Shown in pieces: positions 1,179-30,516 of a DNA stretch of 32,000 nucleotides; position 1 is the stretch's first letter, and every line of letters begins with the position of its first letter. Below the pieces are notes generated by a model, which saw only the letters and a program-made list of their open reading frames with translations, ran no database searches and was not told the DNA's origin. The stretch comes from Ignicoccus pacificus DSM 13166 (lineage in GTDB: Archaea; Thermoproteota; Thermoprotei_A; Sulfolobales; Ignicoccaceae). The position numbers and the translations under genes are program-made. The stretch spans positions 1,350,001-1,382,000 of the forward strand of contig CP006868.1 in assembly GCA_025340205.1 (NCBI GenBank), written 5' to 3'.

Positions 1179-2255
1179 GTGACCCCTTTGGTGAATTCCT
1201 TGAGAGGAGTCGCTTGCTACGATCAAGTGGGCTCAAAGGTTCCTTGCGCGTCCTTCGAGGCCTCGCTCGAGGAAGGGATAAACGTAATCCATTCCCCCAA
1301 CGGCTCTGGAAAGAGCACCTTCCTCACCTTGCTTCATCCCTTAGCTTACGCTTGGAGCGCTTTGGGAAGCTATGCAGAGCCCTTGCTAAGGCTCAGCTTC
1401 GTGAGCTACCTTTCCCTAAAATGGCCGCTACCGGCGGTAGGCTACGTGGAACTGGACGAGGGAAGGCTCCTCTGGTATAGGAAAGAATCCCTTGCCGAGT
1501 CCCTTTCCTCCACCTTCGGCTTTGAGGACTTGCTCGAACAAGCGAAGGGTTGTCAAGGAGCGCTGGAGCTGGAGGGAGGGGACTACAGCTTCAGCGGCCT
1601 CCCCAACACGGAGTTCCGATTCGCTTACTTGGGAATGGGAAGGGCTTGCGGAACGGCCTCCCACGAGAAGTTGGTCCTATCCTCCGACATAACGCTCACA
1701 GAGAAGTACTCCGCTTACCACTCACCTCATCTAGCCCTCGTCCTAAACCTCCTCAAGGCCACCTTCATAGAGCTCGTGAGGTACAAGGCATATACAGATG
1801 AAGCGTTAGAGGAATTGAAGGTCGTGATACCTAACTTGGTAGACGTGAGGTTAAGCGAGGGGATCTACAAGGTTGCCTTCGTGGTAAAGGAAGGAGGAGA
1901 GGAGGTGGAGCTGGAGCCTTGGAGCCTTGGAGACGGCCAAAGGTCCTTGCTCGCCCTAAAAGCCTTGAGGAGCATGTTCGGCGATAAGAGAGGCCTATTC
2001 GTATCCGATACCCCAGAGACGTTCCTCTATTCCGGAGAGGACGGAGATCAGTTGAAGGAAGCGGTAAAGACCATCGCTTCGTTCAGCGATTCGCATCAAG
2101 TGGTAGTTGCTACCTCGAAGCCCGAGGTCAGGGGAATGCTGGTAAACGAGTATCAAGCTGTTCCCTATAAGATAATCAAGGAGGGAAGTGAAGTCAGGGA
2201 AAGGGAGGGTGTTAAGATAGTAATATCAAAGAACAAACTAGTTACTATTCAGTAG
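1179..2255 (+). CDS. ABC/SMC-superfamily (AAA_21/RecF-like) ATPase with non-canonical catalytic residues
   Basis: 358-codon ORF with a GTG start. Walker A is SPNGSGKST (res 39-47). The signature-like block is SLGDGQRSLLAL (res 249-260). The Walker B-like block is GLFVSD-TPE (res 272-280). VVVATSKP stands where this family usually has THSP. There is no coiled-coil insert and no TM segment. Confidence 0.75.
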   Translation: MTPLVNSLRGVACYDQVGSKVPCASFEASLEEGINVIHSPNGSGKSTFLTLLHPLAYAWSALGSYAEPLLRLSFVSYLSLKWPLPAVGYVELDEGRLLWYRKESLAESLSSTFGFEDLLEQAKGCQGALELEGGDYSFSGLPNTEFRFAYLGMGRACGTASHEKLVLSSDITLTEKYSAYHSPHLALVLNLLKATFIELVRYKAYTDEALEELKVVIPNLVDVRLSEGIYKVAFVVKEGGEEVELEPWSLGDGQRSLLALKALRSMFGDKRGLFVSDTPETFLYSGEDGDQLKEAVKTIASFSDSHQVVVATSKPEVRGMLVNEYQAVPYKIIKEGSEVREREGVKIVISKNKLVTIQ

Positions 2256-2965: not shown

Positions 2966-3469
2966 ATGATGAGTTGTTCGCATCCCGAGCACTTCATTAC
3001 TTCCCCTCGGACGAAGGTTCGGGGTAAAGAGATGTTAGCGGGGAAGATCTTGGCATGTAAAGCCTCCCCCGAGGAGGTGAAGGAGCTCTTCGCCAAGTAC
3101 TTGGGATTCGTGGATTACTTGGAGGGAGGGGGCGTTAAGGCGATTCAAGCCTTGGACGAGAACCAGCTAGCTGAGGTTAGGTGTACTGAGAAGGTCACTG
3201 AGATTTACCTAACCACGAGCGTTCCAGAAGGCTTATGGGAGGAGCTCTTCGGGGAGGGAGGAAAGGAGCTGAAGAGGTGCTTGGGCGAGAGGGGATACGT
3301 GAACGTCGCTAGAAGTCACGTCTCCCCCAAGCTCTTCGTAACAGCAGAGGGAACCAAGGGGAGGTTCGAGGCCTTAGTCACCCCAGAAGGAGTCAAGGCG
3401 AAGGGGACTTGTCCCTTCAAGGGAGTGACTCGGATAGCGATAGATGCTGGAATAAACGTCAAGGTCTAA
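2966..3469 (+). CDS. Hypothetical protein with no recognisable motif
   Basis: Long ORF with protein-like composition. A more plausible start is ATG 3032 (MLAGKILACK..., 145 aa), because the first 22 codons are S/P/R-rich. It converges on csx1 with a 4-nt overlap. Confidence 0.5.
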   Translation: MMSCSHPEHFITSPRTKVRGKEMLAGKILACKASPEEVKELFAKYLGFVDYLEGGGVKAIQALDENQLAEVRCTEKVTEIYLTTSVPEGLWEELFGEGGKELKRCLGERGYVNVARSHVSPKLFVTAEGTKGRFEALVTPEGVKAKGTCPFKGVTRIAIDAGINVKV

Positions 3470-4977
3470 TGTTTGAGAGCCTTCAGCAAGGGCTCTTCGA
3501 TCTTCTCCAACATAGGTATGTAGTAGCCTATCCTCTCCCCGTCCAAGGTTATTACGGTGGCGTTCATCTCCATTCCAGCATGAGCGATGAAGTTTCTGGC
3601 ATCGGCCTCTTCTGCCTCCTTAGCGTAGTGGTAGGCCCACCAGAGGACGCTGTCTTGAAGCTCCTTCTTAGCGTGCTTCAGCAATGAGTAGGGGATTGCC
3701 TTTTGCGTTAACTTCAGGAGCTCCTCGAGGCCTTCCCTCACTTTCTCCGCTTCCACCTTGTTCAGCTTCCTCCTCAAATCCTCTTCGATGCTCTCGCACC
3801 CGGAAGGATATCCCTTCGCTATCTCCGCTATCCTCTCCCTCAGGTTGTCCAAGTTTATCTTCTTCAACTCCTTTAAAGACTCTGTAAGCTTGCTATTCTC
3901 CTCATTCCACAACTTCTCATCTACTCCGCGCAAGTAACCCTCCAGCTCCTCCAAGCTTTCTCTATTAACCAAATACAAATTCCCTTCTATTTCTCCCCTT
4001 TCCTTAACGATATCTAAGAACGTTCTCATGGCAATTAAATTGATTATTCCCTTTTCATCAAATACCACGTCTTGCCTTACCCTCTCTCCCTCTACCTCAT
4101 AATGCTCTAGCGCGTTGCTCGCAACCATCAGAAGGTCCCCCACCGCTTCTTCGAATTTCTCCTTGTTTCTGATTACTTTATCCATAACATATGCCCAGTA
4201 GAGGGGACTCGGTACCTCTAGCTTTACCATCTCGTTCGCCAGTTCGCTCAAGGTGCCCCTGTTCTGCAAGTAGGCCTCACACTTACCCTTGTCTATATTA
4301 TTCAAATCCTTCACGAACTCGCTAAGTTCTTGAAGGTTCGGTTCTATTTCCTTCACTTGGAACACGTGGTACCTCAGCTCGACATCTCGCAGCTCCTCCC
4401 CGCTCCCCACTATGGGGTCGCTCGCTCCAATAGCATACTTTATCTTCTTCCTCATGTCTATCGAAATTAGCTTTAAGATGTAGTTATCCAGCGCTTCTCT
4501 TATAGTAACTGGATAGTAGTTGACTCCGTGAGTTATGTCGAGGAGTATCGTTTCTTCGTTCGCCTCTCTCAGCTTTTCGTAGAGCTTCAGTATTATTCCA
4601 GAATACACGTTGCTGAAGGGTACGTCGAATTCCTTTAACACCTCGTTGCTCTTATACACGCCCGTGCTCGGAACGACTACCTTGTCCGCCTCCTCGAATA
4701 TCTTCAAGAATTCCTCATCCTTACTCTTCACTATTTCCCTCATCTTATCCAGAGCGAGGTCGTTTACGTTTCCCTTCCCGTCCGCTATGGAGGCGGGAAC
4801 CACTACCAGCTTCCTCCAGCTTTCGAAGAGGGAAAGGGGCGTGTAGGAATAAGCTTCCACCTTTAAGTTCTCCAATATTTCCTTAACCTTCTTAGGATCC
4901 TTCTCACTTACCTCATCCCTCACGTACTTTACCTTTTTCCAGAACCTAGGGTTGCCCCAAGGGGATATTACCAGCAT
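3466..4977 (-). CDS. csx1: Csx1-family CRISPR-associated CARF/DxTHG/HEPN ribonuclease (stand-alone)
   Basis: The N-terminus MLVISPWGNPRFWKKVKY is the typical Csx1 start. The DxTHG motif is LLDITHGVNY (DITHG at 4525..4539). The C-terminal HEPN motif R-x4-H is ARNFIAHAG (3580..3597). I start the gene at ATG 4977. The 59-codon upstream extension of the ORF-track entry overlaps the divergent methyltransferase gene and looks non-coding. Confidence 0.85.
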   Translation of the reverse strand: MLVISPWGNPRFWKKVKYVRDEVSEKDPKKVKEILENLKVEAYSYTPLSLFESWRKLVVVPASIADGKGNVNDLALDKMREIVKSKDEEFLKIFEEADKVVVPSTGVYKSNEVLKEFDVPFSNVYSGIILKLYEKLREANEETILLDITHGVNYYPVTIREALDNYILKLISIDMRKKIKYAIGASDPIVGSGEELRDVELRYHVFQVKEIEPNLQELSEFVKDLNNIDKGKCEAYLQNRGTLSELANEMVKLEVPSPLYWAYVMDKVIRNKEKFEEAVGDLLMVASNALEHYEVEGERVRQDVVFDEKGIINLIAMRTFLDIVKERGEIEGNLYLVNRESLEELEGYLRGVDEKLWNEENSKLTESLKELKKINLDNLRERIAEIAKGYPSGCESIEEDLRRKLNKVEAEKVREGLEELLKLTQKAIPYSLLKHAKKELQDSVLWWAYHYAKEAEEADARNFIAHAGMEMNATVITLDGERIGYYIPMLEKIEEPLLKALKH

Positions 4978-5051
4978 CCCGGGATCTCTCCAAATAGCTA
5001 GGGGAGCTCCCAGACTAAATCTATGAGAGTAAGTGTAGAGGCGGTGAGCGG

Positions 5052-5633
5052 ATGCATTATTACAAAAAGGGAAAGGGAGGAAGGCCGAGGGACATATACG
5101 TAACGATAAGGGGCGTCGACCTAGTCCTCCAAGTGCCTCCGGGATTGTTCTCAAGTAAGGGATTAGATAAGGGTACGGAGCTCCTCTTGGAGTTCATGGA
5201 GGTTCCTGAGGAGGGTAAGGTTTTAGACGTGGGGTGCGGCTACGGAGTCGTAGGACTCTTCATGAAGAAATACAACCCAAAGCTAGAGGTTTACATGGTT
5301 GATGTAAATCCTCAAGCGGTTAAGATAAGCAAGCTGAACGCCCAAAGGAACTCCTTGGAGGTCAACGTGATCCAAGGAGATACCTACGAACCCTTGGATC
5401 GATTGGGGGTAAAGGACTTCACCACCATAGTCAGCAACCCTCCCCTAGCGGCTGGAAAGGAGACCGTGGAGAGGATCATTCGAGGCGCTCCGGAGAGGCT
5501 CAGGAAAGGGGGCTCCCTCCAAGTGGTTCTGGCTAAGGGAGGGGAATGGGGGGAAGCTCTCTTCAAAGAATTGTTCAAGGACGTTGAGAGGAAGAGGAAG
5601 AAGGGTTACACTCTGCTTAGAGGATGGATCTAG
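5052..5633 (+). CDS. Class I SAM-dependent methyltransferase, small-domain RsmC/MJ0882-like
   Basis: Motif I is VLDVGCGYGVVG and motif IV is IVSNPPL. The N-terminal FSSKGLDKGTELLL is typical of the PF05175 family. Size is 193 aa. Confidence 0.8.
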   Translation: MHYYKKGKGGRPRDIYVTIRGVDLVLQVPPGLFSSKGLDKGTELLLEFMEVPEEGKVLDVGCGYGVVGLFMKKYNPKLEVYMVDVNPQAVKISKLNAQRNSLEVNVIQGDTYEPLDRLGVKDFTTIVSNPPLAAGKETVERIIRGAPERLRKGGSLQVVLAKGGEWGEALFKELFKDVERKRKKGYTLLRGWI

Positions 5634-5655: not shown

Positions 5656-5681
5656 ATTTCTCACAACTAGTTGTGAGAAAT
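5656..5681. promoter_or_regulatory. Perfect 26-nt palindrome ATTTCTCACAACTAGTTGTGAGAAAT abutting the ATPase start codon (candidate operator)
   Basis: Checked base by base: the 13-nt left arm is the exact reverse complement of the 13-nt right arm. It ends 1 nt before ATG 5682. A weak TATA-like CATAAT lies at 5647..5652. No T-run follows, so it does not look like a terminator. Confidence 0.6.
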
Positions 5682-6995
5682 ATGTTAAGAGTTCCGTTCA
5701 TTGATAGGAAAAGGGAATTGAAAGCACTGGAAGGACTCAAGGGTCTGGGAATAGTTTACGGGAGGAGGAGGGTTGGGAAGACTAGGCTATTGCTAGAGTG
5801 GCTCAGGGGGAAGAAGGGAGTCTTCTGGGAGGCCTTCGTGGGCTCTTGGGAGGAGCTTTCCAAGTCCTTCGCCAAGACCGTCAAGAGGGAGTTAGAGATA
5901 AGCGTAGCCCACGACTTGCTAGAAGCCTTGGAGGAGCTCGAGGAGGTGGGAGTTCCAATAGTCATAGATGAGTTTCAGTACGTAGTCCAAGCCGATCCCT
6001 CTGTCACCAGCAAGCTCAAGCTGCTGATAGATAGAGGGATGGAGTACCCTTTAGTTTTGAGCGGCTCCGCTGTCTCCTTCATCGAAAGGGAGCTCCTAGG
6101 TCATTCAAGCCCCCTCTTCGGGAGAAGGTCTCTTCAGCTCAAGATTAAGCCATTACCCTTCTACTACGCGAAGGAATTTTGGGACATGGACTGGGAGGAA
6201 AGCCTCAAGGCGTACGCGATGATAGGCGGGACTCCCGCCTACCTAGCTCAGACTTACTCCTCGAGGTCATTGAAAGATCTAATTTCCAAGGCCTTCTCCT
6301 ACGGTTCCCCTCTACTAGAAGAAGGAGACTTGATATTTCACGAGGAGAGCTTCAGGAGGCCGGAGGTCTACAAGAGGATATTGAGGGCGCTAGCCACCGG
6401 CTACAAGAGCCCTAGCAAGCTAGCGAGCAAGTGCTCCTTGGACGCTAGATCCATCTATTACTACTTAGAGATGTTAGAGGAGCTTGACATAATTAGGTAC
6501 GTATTGCCCTTGGGAAGAAGAAAGGGAGGCATCGTTGAATTCGTAGATGAGTACTTCCGCTTCTACTACTCGACGTTAGTTGAGTTGAAGGGAGCGATAG
6601 AGGCTGGGATAAACGTAATTGATGATATTGAGAAAAGGGTGGAAGAGCTGATCTCGGAGACCTTCGAGAGGGTTACCGAACAGTCCCTTCCCTTGCTATA
6701 TCAGTTGGGACTGATCAAGACCAAGCCTCTCAAAGTGGGAAAGTGGTGGCATAAGGGAGAGGAGATAGACCTGGTCGTCCAGGATGACGTCTCGACGACC
6801 TTCATAGAGGTGAAGTGGTCGGAGCTGGATGAAGAGGATGAGAGGAGAATTCTGGAGGAGCTAAAGGAGAAGGCGAGGAAGAGCGGACTAATGAAGGACA
6901 GCAATTACTTCGTGATAGTATGCAAAAGGTGCAAGGGAGGTATAGAGCTTCTAAACGCTTTGAAGGTTGCAAAGGATAAGGGACTGGAGCTCTAG
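5682..6995 (+). CDS. Archaeal ATPase (Arch_ATPase/PF01637) with C-terminal DUF234-type wHTH and PD-(D/E)xK-like module
   Basis: Walker A is YGRRRVGKT and Walker B is PIVIDEFQ. The C-terminal block GEEIDLVV...TFIEVKWS resembles a restriction-endonuclease-like core. The ORF track starts at GTG 5673 inside the palindrome; ATG 5682 is preferred. Confidence 0.8.
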   Translation: MLRVPFIDRKRELKALEGLKGLGIVYGRRRVGKTRLLLEWLRGKKGVFWEAFVGSWEELSKSFAKTVKRELEISVAHDLLEALEELEEVGVPIVIDEFQYVVQADPSVTSKLKLLIDRGMEYPLVLSGSAVSFIERELLGHSSPLFGRRSLQLKIKPLPFYYAKEFWDMDWEESLKAYAMIGGTPAYLAQTYSSRSLKDLISKAFSYGSPLLEEGDLIFHEESFRRPEVYKRILRALATGYKSPSKLASKCSLDARSIYYYLEMLEELDIIRYVLPLGRRKGGIVEFVDEYFRFYYSTLVELKGAIEAGINVIDDIEKRVEELISETFERVTEQSLPLLYQLGLIKTKPLKVGKWWHKGEEIDLVVQDDVSTTFIEVKWSELDEEDERRILEELKEKARKSGLMKDSNYFVIVCKRCKGGIELLNALKVAKDKGLEL

Positions 6996-28842: not shown

Positions 28843-29340
28843 ATTTCTATTCATTACTGTGATTCCTCGCACTTGGCTACACACTTTTTGTTTTCGCTGT
28901 CGATTATCTTCTTTCCATTCACTCTTGTGACTCTTCTCGTTGCCCTATGAAGTGTCCAATCTGTAAGGTTGAAGCTTTCCATTCACTATTGTAACTCCTC
29001 AAGGAAAATTCCAAGAGCCCGTTCCCGGAATAATGTACCAAAACTTTCCATTCACTATTGTAACTCCTCCTTATTACATAATGAGGTGAAGCGTTATGGC
29101 CCACAAGAGCTTCTTTCCATTCACTATTGTAACTCTTCCCACTTCGTCTGGATACCGAAGTACAGAGGGAACGTTCTAGTCTTTCCATTCACTATTGTAA
29201 CTCTTCCCGTTGCCTTCAACTGGATGAGAAGCTCTTGGAGTCTTTCTTTCCATTCACTATTGTAACTCTTCTGAGGATGAGAAGAACGAAATTAGTGCGA
29301 GGGCGAAGGCGATACTTTCCATTCACTATTGTAACTCTTC
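28843..29340 (-). CRISPR. CRISPR array: 7 well-conserved 26-nt repeats plus 1 decayed repeat; spacers 38-43 nt
   Basis: The plus-strand consensus is CTTTCCATTCACTATTGTAACTCTTC. Repeats start at 28911 (2 mismatches), 28975 and 29044 (1 mismatch each), and 29113, 29181, 29246 and 29315 (all exact). A fossil repeat at 28843..28868 matches 19 of 26 positions and sits at the correct 68-nt spacing. On the minus strand the repeat ends ...GTGAATGGAAAG, like the ATTGAAAG 5'-handle end of crenarchaeal repeats. Mutated repeats lie at the left end, so I infer minus-strand transcription from a leader on the right. Confidence 0.95.
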
Positions 29341-29700
29341 CGTGACCCTCCTATTTAACTAGTTCTTCCATTAGCTAATAAGCCATTCCTTTCCCATTGC
29401 CTTGATTTGGTTACTTTATTAACTCTGAATACTTAAGCTTTCATGAGAACAGTTTTGCTCTACTTCCATCAATTAGAATTACCTAACTGAAACTAATAGT
29501 CAAACAAAAGAGTTCGTTATCATCGGTGTTCCCATGTATGTGACAATGGAAAGAATTGCTTAGCCTTTAAAATGAATTGAACTTTGAAGGTTCAAGAACG
29601 AATAGTGCTCAAGGTGAAGGGAAGAAAGAAGACCATAAACGTTCTGATATGTTCCCATGGAAAATAGGAAATGAAAAAGTAGGAAAGAGGTGATGGGGAT
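29341..29700 (-). promoter_or_regulatory. Probable CRISPR leader (AT-rich, non-coding)
   Basis: About 360 nt of AT-rich sequence with no ORF abuts the end of the array that carries perfect repeats. It contains TATA-like boxes, for example TTTAAAA at about 29566..29572. The extent is approximate. Confidence 0.4.
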
Positions 29701-29927
29701 CTATGGAAGCGGTTGTCTCAAGGTCTCCCTCTTTCCCTCCTTAGCTCTAAGGACTCTCCCGATCCTCCTGCATTCCAGCCAGTCCTCAACGAAGAAGAAG
29801 CACTCATCCTCCGTCACCTTCGATCCCCACTAATACGAGTGAAGAGGCAAAAGGGAGCGGCAGAGGGGAGCGCACCTTTTACCCTACTCTTAAACTTCCC
29901 CTCTCACCGAGGCCCGGTGAAAGCGGC

Positions 29928-30467
29928 ATGAAGCTAGTGTCAATCGTAGGCGACAGCCCCACCGGACCCCTCGAGGTCCTCGAGTACCTCTACAGGAAGG
30001 GAGAGGAGCCCACCAGACTAGTGATAGTATTCCCCAAGGACAAGGCAAAGATCGCCGAGATAGTCGAGCTAGCCATCTTAGTAGGAATCAAGGACGTGAT
30101 CCCGACCACTCTCCTCATCGATAGGGTAATACTGGAGAAGAGCGACGCCGATAACAAGGTGGAGCTTCAAGACATGAAGGATACCATAGATGCCAACGTG
30201 GACCCGGGCGACTTCGTGGACATAAGCGGAGCCCCCAAGCTACCCGCAGCCCTAGGAGCCGTCGTGGCCAGAGACAAGGAGGCTCACCTGGTCTATGTAC
30301 CTCAGGCCGAGGAAAAGGAGGAGGTAATGAAGGCATACGAGGAGCTGGGCAAGATGGATCTAAAGAAGGCCATTGCTGAGTTCAGGGCCTCCGGAAAGAT
30401 AGACGAGGAGCTAAGGAAGTTGCTGGAGAAAGTAGTACTCAAGAAGCCCAAGGTAATAATCCTTTAA
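29928..30467 (+). CDS. Minimal stand-alone CARF-domain protein (179 aa), Crn1-like ring-nuclease candidate
   Basis: The N-terminus is MKLVSIVGDSPTGPLEVLEYLYRKGE (beta1-GxSP loop-helix). The second ligand-binding loop is VDISGAPKLPAALGA, equivalent to DITGGRK/DxTHG. A short helical tail of about 50 aa follows, with no HEPN, nuclease or clear HTH effector domain. Confidence 0.65.
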   Translation: MKLVSIVGDSPTGPLEVLEYLYRKGEEPTRLVIVFPKDKAKIAEIVELAILVGIKDVIPTTLLIDRVILEKSDADNKVELQDMKDTIDANVDPGDFVDISGAPKLPAALGAVVARDKEAHLVYVPQAEEKEEVMKAYEELGKMDLKKAIAEFRASGKIDEELRKLLEKVVLKKPKVIIL

Positions 30468-30516
30468 GCTAGGAAAAGAGTTTTTCTTCCTACGTTCCTT
30501 CAGACCGGGAAGCTGG

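Follow-up and report, generated by a model that had tools for sequence, protein, structure and literature searches.

IPA_08030 of Ignicoccus pacificus DSM 13166, annotated "hypothetical protein", is, on the evidence of sequence, profiles and predicted fold, homologous over its full length to the small stand-alone Crn1 proteins Sso2081 and Sis0455. It is a non-canonical member of Crn1 and forms, with five relatives, an isolated clade. Purifying selection on the gene is strong. Whether a type III CRISPR response leads to recovery or to dormancy or death is decided by ring nucleases. We tentatively propose, with a confidence that stays a little short of even, that IPA_08030 is a lineage-specific, strongly diverged small Crn1 homologue that would bind cyclic oligoadenylate (cOA) as a dimer and plausibly act as a ring nuclease.

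Gene product and predicted architecture

The window, that is the whole stretch of 32,000 nucleotides that was analysed, encodes at 29928..30467 (plus strand, ATG start, from the ORF listing of the window) a product of 179 aa which is 100% identical to IPA_08030. The gene and its parts are the following.

29928..30467, plus strand: IPA_08030, Crn1-like stand-alone CARF gene (CARF core, helical lid, final beta-strand)
29949..29957, plus strand: motif I equivalent G8-D9-S10 (canonical G9-T10-S11), from alignments
30231..30239, plus strand: motif II equivalent A102-P103-K104 (canonical G104-R105-K106), from four concordant alignments
30318..30434, plus strand: three-helix insertion, residues 131-169, between beta5 and beta6 (DSSP of the AF2 model, Foldseek, alignment)

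The AF2 model (pLDDT 89.7, pTM 0.86) consists of a Rossmann-like beta/alpha core, with a putative ligand site made of the beta1-alpha1 and beta4-alpha4 loops as in the CARF superfamily, followed by helices at residues 131-142, 145-155 and 160-169 and by a strand at 176-177. A sequence-only reading of the window had described a 179-aa CARF-only product with two loop signatures; both are present, VGDSPTGP at residues 7-14 and DISGAPK at residues 98-104 (codons checked), and no second domain was found beyond the CARF core, the lid and the last strand. The same reading had the protein end in a helical tail of about 50 aa. The helices are indeed there in the model, but since they are followed by the strand at 176-177 they constitute an insertion between beta5 and beta6 and not a free tail. 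This insertion is the counterpart of the helical insertion of Sso2081 and Sis0455, which closes as a lid over cyclic tetra-adenylate, without the lid Tyr133 and without the four disulfide cysteines. A CARF core, a helical lid between beta5 and beta6 and the absence of an effector domain together reproduce the Crn1 architecture. IPA_08030 is acidic, with a pI of 5.1 versus 6.6-8.3 for the proteins compared.

Relationship to Crn1 and to other CARF proteins

The proposed kinship with Sso2081 was borne out in concordant fashion by NCBIfam, PADLOC, PDB searches, hhalign and Foldseek. The sole meaningful family match of IPA_08030 is NCBIfam cas_Crn1 (NF040581; E 7.3e-13), at 48.6 bits, a score far under the curated equivalog cut-off of 125 bits. 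This model matches all six clade members (best E 1.9e-14), the bit score being known for IPA_08030 alone, and Pfam PF09623, which is present in most canonical Crn1 sequences, matches none of the six even at E<=10. The best PADLOC match is CARF_m13 (E 7e-17), the clade of Sso2081/Sis0455, with further matches to Csx1-CARF and CARF5. Among PDB sequences, phmmer and hmmsearch returned Sis0455 and Sso2081 only (E 1e-9 to 1e-16; with phmmer alone, E 1e-9 to 1e-12). Alignment by hhalign to 21 canonical Crn1s gave 99.25% and E 6e-20 over 172 of 179 columns, last strand included, and spans residues 1-179. Considering structure, Foldseek aligned the model to Sso2081 with a TMq of 0.83-0.84 over 181 columns, lid included, and to Sis0455 with 0.74, and the next matches (Cdn1, Csa3, Can2, Csm6, Cam1, Card1) all reach at most 0.55 on the CARF core alone. 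All 40 PDB matches at E<=1e-3 are CARF proteins, and placement in a non-CARF Rossmann family was observed neither by structure nor by profile.

Sso2081 (7YGH, 7YHL, 8HTW) and Sis0455 (7Z55/7Z56) have about 178 aa, the same beta1-beta6 topology with a lid and, like IPA_08030, no effector domain, at 22-26% identity. Sso1393, which had been cited as a second example of the same architecture, is not one: together with Sis0811 it represents the long Crn1 type (CARF7 + HTH) of stand-alone cA4 ring nucleases. These resemble IPA_08030 in standing alone, in their central lysine and in the absence of the motif-II arginine; unlike it they have a C-terminal HTH, no lid insertion and a dependence on the motif-I serine. 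The closest non-Crn1 structural relatives are the CARF cores of Can2/Card1 (TMq 0.45-0.53), which, like the Ignicoccus clade, lack GTS and the motif-II arginine and keep the central lysine (PMC10018336) but, unlike IPA_08030, carry fused nuclease effector domains and no lid insertion. Csx15 is also a small stand-alone CARF-like protein, of doubtful ring-nuclease activity; it forms a separate clade, and a sequence or fold relationship to IPA_08030 is not detectable. Csa3 shares the CARF core, has a wHTH, binds cA4 and regulates CRISPR loci; it aligns with IPA_08030 over the core only (TMq 0.47), with an rmsd >18 A over the full alignment.

Ligand-site residues

The six clade members were compared with 24 canonical Crn1s (MAFFT; 23 sequences counted at motif I). 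That the second loop reads GAPK in place of the usual GGRK had been noticed from the sequence, and this is confirmed; the deviation is much wider, since motif I and the lid tyrosine are altered as well as motif II. IPA_08030 has neither Gly-Thr-Ser after beta1 nor Gly-Arg-Lys at the N-terminus of alpha4 nor the lid tyrosine, and it does have the acidic pair equivalent to Glu17 and Asp75.

Motif I (Gly-Thr-Ser) positions the 2'-OH and the scissile phosphate, and has been proposed as the discriminator between degrading and non-degrading CARFs (PMC10018336). Across the clade it becomes G(D/E/K)(S/Q/H): the Thr10 position reads D, E, D, D, K, D (canonical T in 21/23) and the Ser11 position S, S, Q, Q, H, Q, that is S in 2/6 and Q or H in 4/6 (canonical S in 22/23). 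Ser10 of IPA_08030, the residue picked out beforehand, is therefore not conserved within its own clade. In Sso2081, S11A strongly lowers cleavage; Sis0455 S11G cleaves at wild-type level.

Within motif II, where G104, R105 and K106 are each found in 24/24 canonical sequences, G104 is replaced by A or S and R105 by an invariant P, and K106 persists as K or R, so that GGRK becomes (G/S)(A/S)P(K/R). The arginine is the chief cA4-binding determinant, R105A/G abolishing cA4 binding in both Sso2081 and Sis0455, and D75G has the same effect in these proteins. The lysine acts as transition-state stabiliser, Glu17 and Asp75 position the adenine and the arginine, and Tyr133 of the lid contacts the scissile or cleaved phosphate. 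Can2 and Card1, in which the motif-II arginine is missing, still bind cA4 (PMC10018336). Tyr133, a Y in 23/24 canonical Crn1s, aligns either to K130 (K, R, A, A, R, A in the clade; MAFFT) or to E129 (phmmer), with no Tyr either way, and an invariant Glu-Glu of the clade lid lies near the position of this phosphate-binding residue. Other replacements at invariant or near-invariant canonical positions are G13 to T and T37 to P, T or V, and the disulfide cysteines are gone.

Retained in the clade are G9, E17 (E16, invariant), D75 (D73; D/E in 6/6), K106 as K or R, I128 as V, Q130 as Q, and a basic residue in the last strand (K or R for R172 of Sso2081). Three stretches do not vary across the clade: TGPLEVLEYL, DPGDxxDxSxxPxxPA and YVPxxEE. 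Pocket-forming segments have 47% invariant positions versus 33% elsewhere (Fisher p = 0.09), a difference only suggestive of stronger conservation of the pocket than of the remainder of the protein. Since Thr10, Gly104, Arg105 and Tyr133 are replaced and Ser10 is variable, catalysis may be weak or differently organised.

Selection and distribution

Against its 87%-identical homologue IPA_08030 has a dN/dS of 0.056, with synonymous sites saturated, and the other measurable pairs give 0.11-0.23. This value, and the full length of all five homologues, show that the ORF is no chance reading frame. The clade comprises six sequences from Ignicoccus-like archaea, not Sulfolobales, with all ORFs intact, and the homologue searches returned no member from I. 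hospitalis or I. islandicus. The genes next to the homologues other than the closest one are housekeeping genes, e.g. desulfoferrodoxin, CTP synthase, NAD biosynthesis and aroA, and no neighbouring gene is conserved across the homologue loci.

Two other candidate relationships were rejected. A viral origin or anti-CRISPR role was discarded, there being no relative in viral contigs and the best BFVD fold match (TMq 0.42) not being meaningful. P0009, retrieved as a homologue at E 5e-10, is a repeat protein of eukaryotic type; seven weak repeats add up to its score, and the match is spurious.

The neighbouring CRISPR array and the distant csx1

Besides IPA_08030, the window contains the following relevant features.

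3466..4977, minus strand: csx1 (CARF9 CARF + HEPN, RNFIAH intact; Pfam, TIGR01897, PADLOC)
~28843..29340, minus strand: small orphan CRISPR array with 26-nt repeats, six of them good and two degenerate; its transcription runs away from the ORF
29341..29691, minus strand: AT-rich CRISPR leader, 31-36% GC (composition, blastn)
29692..29927, no strand: GC-rich (52-56%) non-coding stretch of 236 nt from the leader to the ATG

The eight repeats of the array lie 64-69 nt apart, with the degenerate pair at the low-coordinate end. Read on the minus strand the repeat is GAAGAGTTACAATAGTGAATGGAAAG, which places the leader on the ORF side of the array. Over 285 nt, positions 29413-29691 of the leader share 71% identity with that of locus L004 (blastn). 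The distance from the gene to the leader, previously put at about 230 nt, is 236 nt, counted from the leader end at ~29691 to the ATG. One spacer core and the repeat have no exact match in viral contigs, and scans of the 32-kb window for Rfam families, tRNAs and tandem repeats returned nothing.

The 87% homologue has a homologous leader and array within 2.6 kb, and a similar repeat on its MAG contig. Linkage to an array is common to IPA_08030 and this closest relative only; at the four other homologue loci, neither an array nor a cas gene occurs within the 2-10 kb examined. The adjacency of IPA_08030 to the CRISPR leader is best read as a local accident of synteny, outside the mechanism.

Two statements made earlier about the signalling context hold: csx1, 25 kb from IPA_08030, is the sole recognisable cOA-responsive effector in the window, and no cas10 is present within these 32 kb. 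Searches of the window found no other cas gene either. Small Crn1 proteins are expected in organisms with a cOA-producing type III (Cas10) system, and their genes commonly lie within the type III locus or close to it. The csx1 ORF spans 3466-5154 (minus strand), with homology beginning at M60 (position 4977). Its product matches Pfam Csx1_CARF/Csx1_HEPN and PADLOC Csx1/CARF9, and scores 121.9 bits against TIGR01897 (cut-off 110); it is the presumed beneficiary of cOA removal by IPA_08030.

Proposed function and alternative explanations

We suggest that IPA_08030 would act as a homodimer, as its relatives do, and would bind a cyclic oligoadenylate, most likely cA4, produced by a type III complex encoded elsewhere in the genome. 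Putative contacts are Glu16 (to the adenine), Asp73, Lys175 and, at the N-terminal end of helix alpha4, Lys104. The lid would then shut and the signal would be removed, which would hold in check the Csx1 RNase, whose gene lies 25 kb away. The most likely route of removal would be a slow in-line attack by the 2'-OH, independent of metal, that yields A2>P. The chemistry depends mainly on the geometry of the substrate, and Sis0455 tolerates loss of the motif-I serine. In favour of the proposal are the homology and fold, the retained ligand residues, the purifying selection, the intact csx1 in the window, and the tolerance of motif changes seen with Sis0455 S11G and with Can2/Card1. Counting against it are the replacements of R105, GTS and Tyr133, the sub-cut-off score and missing PF09623 match, the acidic pI with the Glu-Glu of the lid, the lack of cas10 in the window and the four array-less loci. 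A broader formulation, which we regard as possible but doubtful, is a Crn1 fold with a rewired active site, serving either as a non-degrading cOA buffer or sponge or as a ring nuclease that relies on another set of catalytic residues. The latter might combine the carboxylate at the Thr10 position, the Pro-Lys/Arg of motif II and the Glu-Glu of the lid; it could perhaps be assisted by metal, or its specificity could be for some cOA that is not cA4.

The closest alternative to a ring nuclease is sequestration instead of cleavage: fold and lid would be kept and activity lost, the protein serving as a host-encoded sponge or buffer, which would fix the level at which Csx1 is activated, or as a sensor relaying the signal to a partner. 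Such a non-catalytic binder, which we consider unlikely though it deserves consideration, accords with the lack of conservation, in the clade, of GTS and of the motif-II Arg/Gly, the published discriminators of degrading CARFs, a pattern like that of Can2/Card1, non-cleaving cA4 binders that have neither GTS nor the Arg (PMC10018336). It also accords with the change of Ser10 to Q or H in 4/6 members although the flanking loop is invariant, and has a precedent in Csx15, which showed no ring-nuclease activity in vitro. A sponge, however, requires stoichiometric amounts and very high affinity, yet R105 is absent; a partner is not indicated by any conserved neighbouring gene; and few particular side chains are required for ring-nuclease chemistry in CARFs, Sis0455 S11G being active. 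Alternatively, the pocket may have been remodelled for another small ligand, be it a different cyclic or linear nucleotide or a metabolite, outside type III CRISPR signalling. Five of about twelve ligand-contacting positions are changed, the protein is acidic, the Glu-Glu of the lid is invariant, the homologues sit amid housekeeping genes and the window lacks cas10, all of which would suit such an exaptation. We nevertheless judge it distinctly unlikely: Glu16, which reads the adenine, is kept, as are Asp73 and the central Lys/Arg104, an intact csx1 lies in the same window, the two closest members are beside or near a CRISPR array, and all characterised proteins of such a fold with a lid handle cA4. 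In addition, the patchy distribution, with no member returned from I. hospitalis or I. islandicus, is more in keeping with an accessory or defence role than with housekeeping.

Regulation of the adjacent array had been suggested as a further role, and a Csa3-like protein acting on the leader 236 nt upstream would agree with the divergent orientation of gene and leader and with the homologous leader and array found within 2.6 kb of the 87% homologue. The suggestion finds no support in the protein itself, which matches no HTH family in Pfam or NCBIfam and has no DNA-binding domain, its C-terminal helices being those of the Crn1 lid, followed by the sixth strand. The Csa3 match is limited to the CARF core, four homologues have no array in their available 2-10 kb, and the sequence separating leader and gene is not conserved, which makes this role very improbable. 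Finally, the loss of hallmark residues and of the disulfide cysteines, next to an orphan array, could recall a decaying Crn1 relic without present function. This is hardly credible given the intact homologue ORFs, the long invariant stretches and the confident fold prediction, and is effectively refuted by the purifying selection measured (dN/dS 0.056 with saturated synonymous sites).

Bioinformatic surveys currently identify ring nucleases by a small number of "absolutely conserved" residues and set aside look-alikes in which these are missing. The Ignicoccus clade can be seen as a natural experiment in this respect, of modest scope (six sequences, one hyperthermophile lineage), in which the Crn1 scaffold and lid stay under strong selection with R105 turned into Pro and GTS broken. 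Cleavage of cA4 by IPA_08030 would mean that rules based on motifs draw the class of ring nucleases too tightly; binding alone would make the protein a cOA buffer of the cell, built on a ring-nuclease scaffold and the first host-encoded non-degrading one; and if it does neither, it would illustrate the exit of a CARF protein from CRISPR signalling. Should the active site be rewired, the published GTS/GRK motifs do not bound the capabilities of the Crn1 fold.

Sequence upstream of IPA_08030

The 236-nt stretch 29692..29927 has no counterpart in L004. No alignment was obtained between the region upstream of IPA_08030 and the one upstream of the 87% homologue; by blastn, the leader alone is shared. 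We infer that the promoter of IPA_08030 lies within this stretch of 236 nt. A GGTGA element resembling a Shine-Dalgarno sequence lies 8-12 nt ahead of the ATG.

Homology and fold of IPA_08030

The ORF at 29928-30467 (+), read from first start to stop, encodes the 179-aa IPA_08030 with 100% identity, labelled 'hypothetical protein' (I. pacificus DSM 13166) in the database. Codons checked on the DNA place VGDSPTGP at residues 7-14 and DISGAPK at residues 98-104, so that frame and motifs agree with the sequence-only reading.

IPA_08030 is homologous to the Sso2081-type Crn1 ring nucleases. No match was found in Pfam, and the sole meaningful NCBIfam match was cas_Crn1 (E 7.3e-13, residues 2-167 on model positions 1-170 of 178), which scored 48.6 bits where the curated cut-off is 125. 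The top PADLOC match was CARF_m13 (E 7e-17), the minor CARF clade to which Molina et al. 2022 (PMC9638899) assign Sis0455 and Sso2081, both small stand-alone ring nucleases. These two proteins were also the only phmmer matches in the PDB (6.9e-12 and 1.3e-9), and a profile of the clade formed by IPA_08030 and its five relatives gave 1.2e-16 and 9.7e-15. Aligned with 21 canonical Crn1s by hhalign, the clade matched with 99.25% probability (E 5.9e-20) over 172 columns, last beta-strand included.

The AF2 model, built from the six-sequence clade alignment (pLDDT 89.7, pTM 0.86), matched Sso2081 in the PDB with a Foldseek TMq of 0.83-0.84 over ~181 columns and Sis0455 with 0.74; the remaining matches (Cdn1, Csa3, Can2, Csm6, Cam1, Card1) reached at most 0.55 and covered the core only. 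Its topology is beta1-alpha1-beta2-alpha2-beta3-alpha3-beta4-alpha4-beta5, three helices (131-169) and a final strand. Since these helices precede the last strand, they correspond to the Crn1 lid inserted between beta5 and beta6, and not to the helical tail of ~50 aa initially described; this topology rules out both a tail and a DNA-binding domain. The likeness once drawn to both Sso2081 and Sso1393 holds for the former, by profiles and fold, but not for Sso1393, which is of the long CARF7+HTH type.

Ligand-site residues

The alignment set the six clade sequences against 24-25 canonical Crn1s, most of them from Sulfolobales.

Compared positions (Sis0455 numbering unless stated): canonical residue; canonical count; IPA_08030; clade
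T10; 21/23; D9; D,E,D,D,K,D
S11; 22/23; S10; S,S,Q,Q,H,Q
G13; -; T; T invariant
T37; 24/24; -; P/T/V
G104; 24/24; -; A/S
R105; 24/24; P103; P invariant
Y133; 23/24; -; K/R/A
E17; -; E16; E invariant, retained
D75; -; -; D/E, retained
K106; -; K104; K/R, retained
I128 / Q130; -; -; V / Q, retained
Sso2081 R172; -; -; K/R, retained

The departure of the second loop from GGRK, already remarked, is confirmed, and motif I and the lid tyrosine are changed too, with G9 of motif I kept. Crystallographic and mutational data on Sso2081 and Sis0455 make these substitutions weighty. R105A/G abolishes cA4 binding in both proteins, binding is largely lost in D75 mutants, cleavage requires K106, and S11A strongly reduces cleavage in Sso2081 whereas S11G in Sis0455 is wild-type-like; it has been proposed that the GTS of motif I sets cOA-degrading CARFs apart from non-degrading ones (PMC9638899, PMC10018336). 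By its substitutions, the clade thus fails a motif-level definition of Crn1 while keeping the scaffold. IPA_08030 also lacks the four cysteines whose pairing gives Sis0455 its two disulfides, and is acidic (pI 5.1, against 6.6-8.3). A Glu-Glu pair is invariant in the clade lid.

Distribution, selection and context of the homologues

Across 5.8 billion proteins, two word-indexed searches found six sequences at 54-87% identity: one comes from a named genome, two from MAGs and three from metagenomes. When 1.84 billion cluster representatives were scanned exhaustively with HMMER, the clade was represented by a single cluster, and canonical Crn1s followed at ≤60 bits. Protein searches returned no member from I. 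hospitalis or I. islandicus, and no viral relative was found in IMG/VR or BFVD. The clade therefore appears, from these searches, very small and isolated. A 1405-aa eukaryote-type tandem-repeat protein (P0009, E 5e-10 against the clade profile) was rejected as spurious, seven weak helical-region matches having been summed; E-values of the cluster-representative search consequently need a repeat check.

Strong purifying selection acts on the gene, with a dN/dS of 0.056 against the 87% homologue (synonymous sites nearly saturated) and of 0.11-0.23 in other measurable pairs. The long invariant runs TGPLEVLEYL, DPGDxxDxSxxPxxPA and YVPxxEE lie within the three segments that form the ligand site in Crn1, and the difference in invariance between pocket-homologous and other positions (47% vs 33%, p = 0.09) is not significant.

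Genomic context is not conserved. Neighbours are a Cas4-like gene and THUMP/ABC/GHMP genes at contig locus L001, NAD-biosynthesis genes, desulfoferrodoxin and Lhr helicase at L003, and CTP synthase and desulfoferrodoxin at L006/L008 and L007; no array lies within the 2-10 kb covered at these loci.

The CRISPR array, csx1 and the remaining window genes

~28843-29340 (-): CRISPR array, eight 26-nt repeats, 64-69 nt spacing
to ~29691: leader, AT-rich (31-36% GC), GC climbing to 52-56% beyond
1179-2255 (+): AAA_23/ABC-type ATPase
3466-4977 (-): csx1, Csx1_CARF + Csx1_HEPN
5673-6995 (+): DUF234/ATPase_2 archaeal ATPase

No cas gene flanks the array on either side within the window, which makes it an orphan. 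Its minus-strand repeat (GAAGAGTTACAATAGTGAATGGAAAG) indicates transcription away from IPA_08030, with the leader on the ORF side; the two trailer-end (low-coordinate) repeats are degenerate (60% and reference-divergent). Neither the newest spacer core nor the repeat has an exact match in IMG/VR. Among the homologue loci, a related array (CTTTCTATTCACTCTTGTAACTCT) and a homologous leader occur only in the closest relative, the MAG contig L004 (window 29413-29691 vs 327-605, 71% identity over 285 nt); tblastx showed no preferred frame, so the leader is non-coding. Three genes (flavodoxin-like, UPF0020 methyltransferase, 82-aa ORF) separate leader and Crn1-like gene there, and leader adjacency is thus best read as shared ancestry, not conserved functional linkage.

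The csx1 product exceeds the TIGR01897 cut-off and has intact RNFIAH (HEPN) and DITHG (CARF) motifs, which points indirectly to cOA signalling in I. pacificus. The mechanical ORF (3466-5154, -) starts at a TTG at 5154 and overlaps an MTS-family methyltransferase ORF (5052-5633, +); as Csx1 homology begins at Met60 (4977), this is likely the true start. Gene-family searches found no cas10, as had been noted, nor any other cas gene in the 32-kb window, and csx1 with its flanking ATPases may form a small defence islet that lacks cas10. The AAA_23/ABC-type ATPase has weak P-loop matches to LmuB, AriA and PtuA; the DUF234/ATPase_2 protein matches the PADLOC candidate-defence family PDC-S27 (E 4.6e-27). 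The other genes are housekeeping (tRNA synthetases, hemA, hydantoinase, hypA, SpoU methylase, radical-SAM protein, aroA). A literature search gave no account of Ignicoccus type III systems.

Proposed function

Considering the observed fold, retained residues, selection and presence of csx1, the best-supported reading is that IPA_08030 would form a diverged Crn1-type homodimer. Cyclic oligoadenylate, made by a putative Cas10 cyclase encoded in the genome, would be held in the beta1/beta4-loop pocket (E16, D73, K104, K175), the helical lid would then close over it, and the Csx1-activating signal would be removed. We tentatively suggest removal by cleavage: ring-nuclease activity is plausible because substrate-assisted in-line attack is governed largely by geometry and Sis0455 can dispense with the serine, but with R105, T10, G104 and Y133 gone, catalysis could realistically be weak, altered or absent.

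A non-catalytic binder or buffer is unlikely, yet far from negligible in view of Can2 and Card1, which lack GTS and the arginine and still bind cA4 via a central lysine (PMC9638899, PMC10018336); an altered ligand, or departure from CRISPR signalling, seems somewhat more doubtful. Regulation of the array is very improbable, the lid helices being no DNA-binding domain and leader adjacency no conserved linkage, and a relic is hardly credible given a dN/dS this low. Profiles, fold and alignment support and refine the earlier view, in which a CARF-only protein of Crn1 type carries a deviant second loop. IPA_08030 is a Crn1 scaffold with rewired motifs and a predicted function, new and narrowly distributed though not categorically new, and bears on the recognition of ring nucleases from sequence.

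Transcript surroundings

29692-29927: GC-rich stretch (52-56%), coding-like, between leader and ATG

The measured gap from leader to ATG is 236 nt, close to the ~230 nt first estimated. L004 lacks a counterpart of this stretch, which contains no convincing ORF and could be a deleted-gene remnant or an extended 5' region. At 8-12 nt 5' of the ATG lies a Shine-Dalgarno-like element, GGTGA. Directly downstream, aroA starts 50 nt on; the downstream neighbour in L004 is a different one. A T5 run (GAGTTTTTCTTCC, window 30468-30516), ~15 nt past the stop, resembles an archaeal oligo-T terminator and suggests that IPA_08030 is not co-transcribed with aroA.
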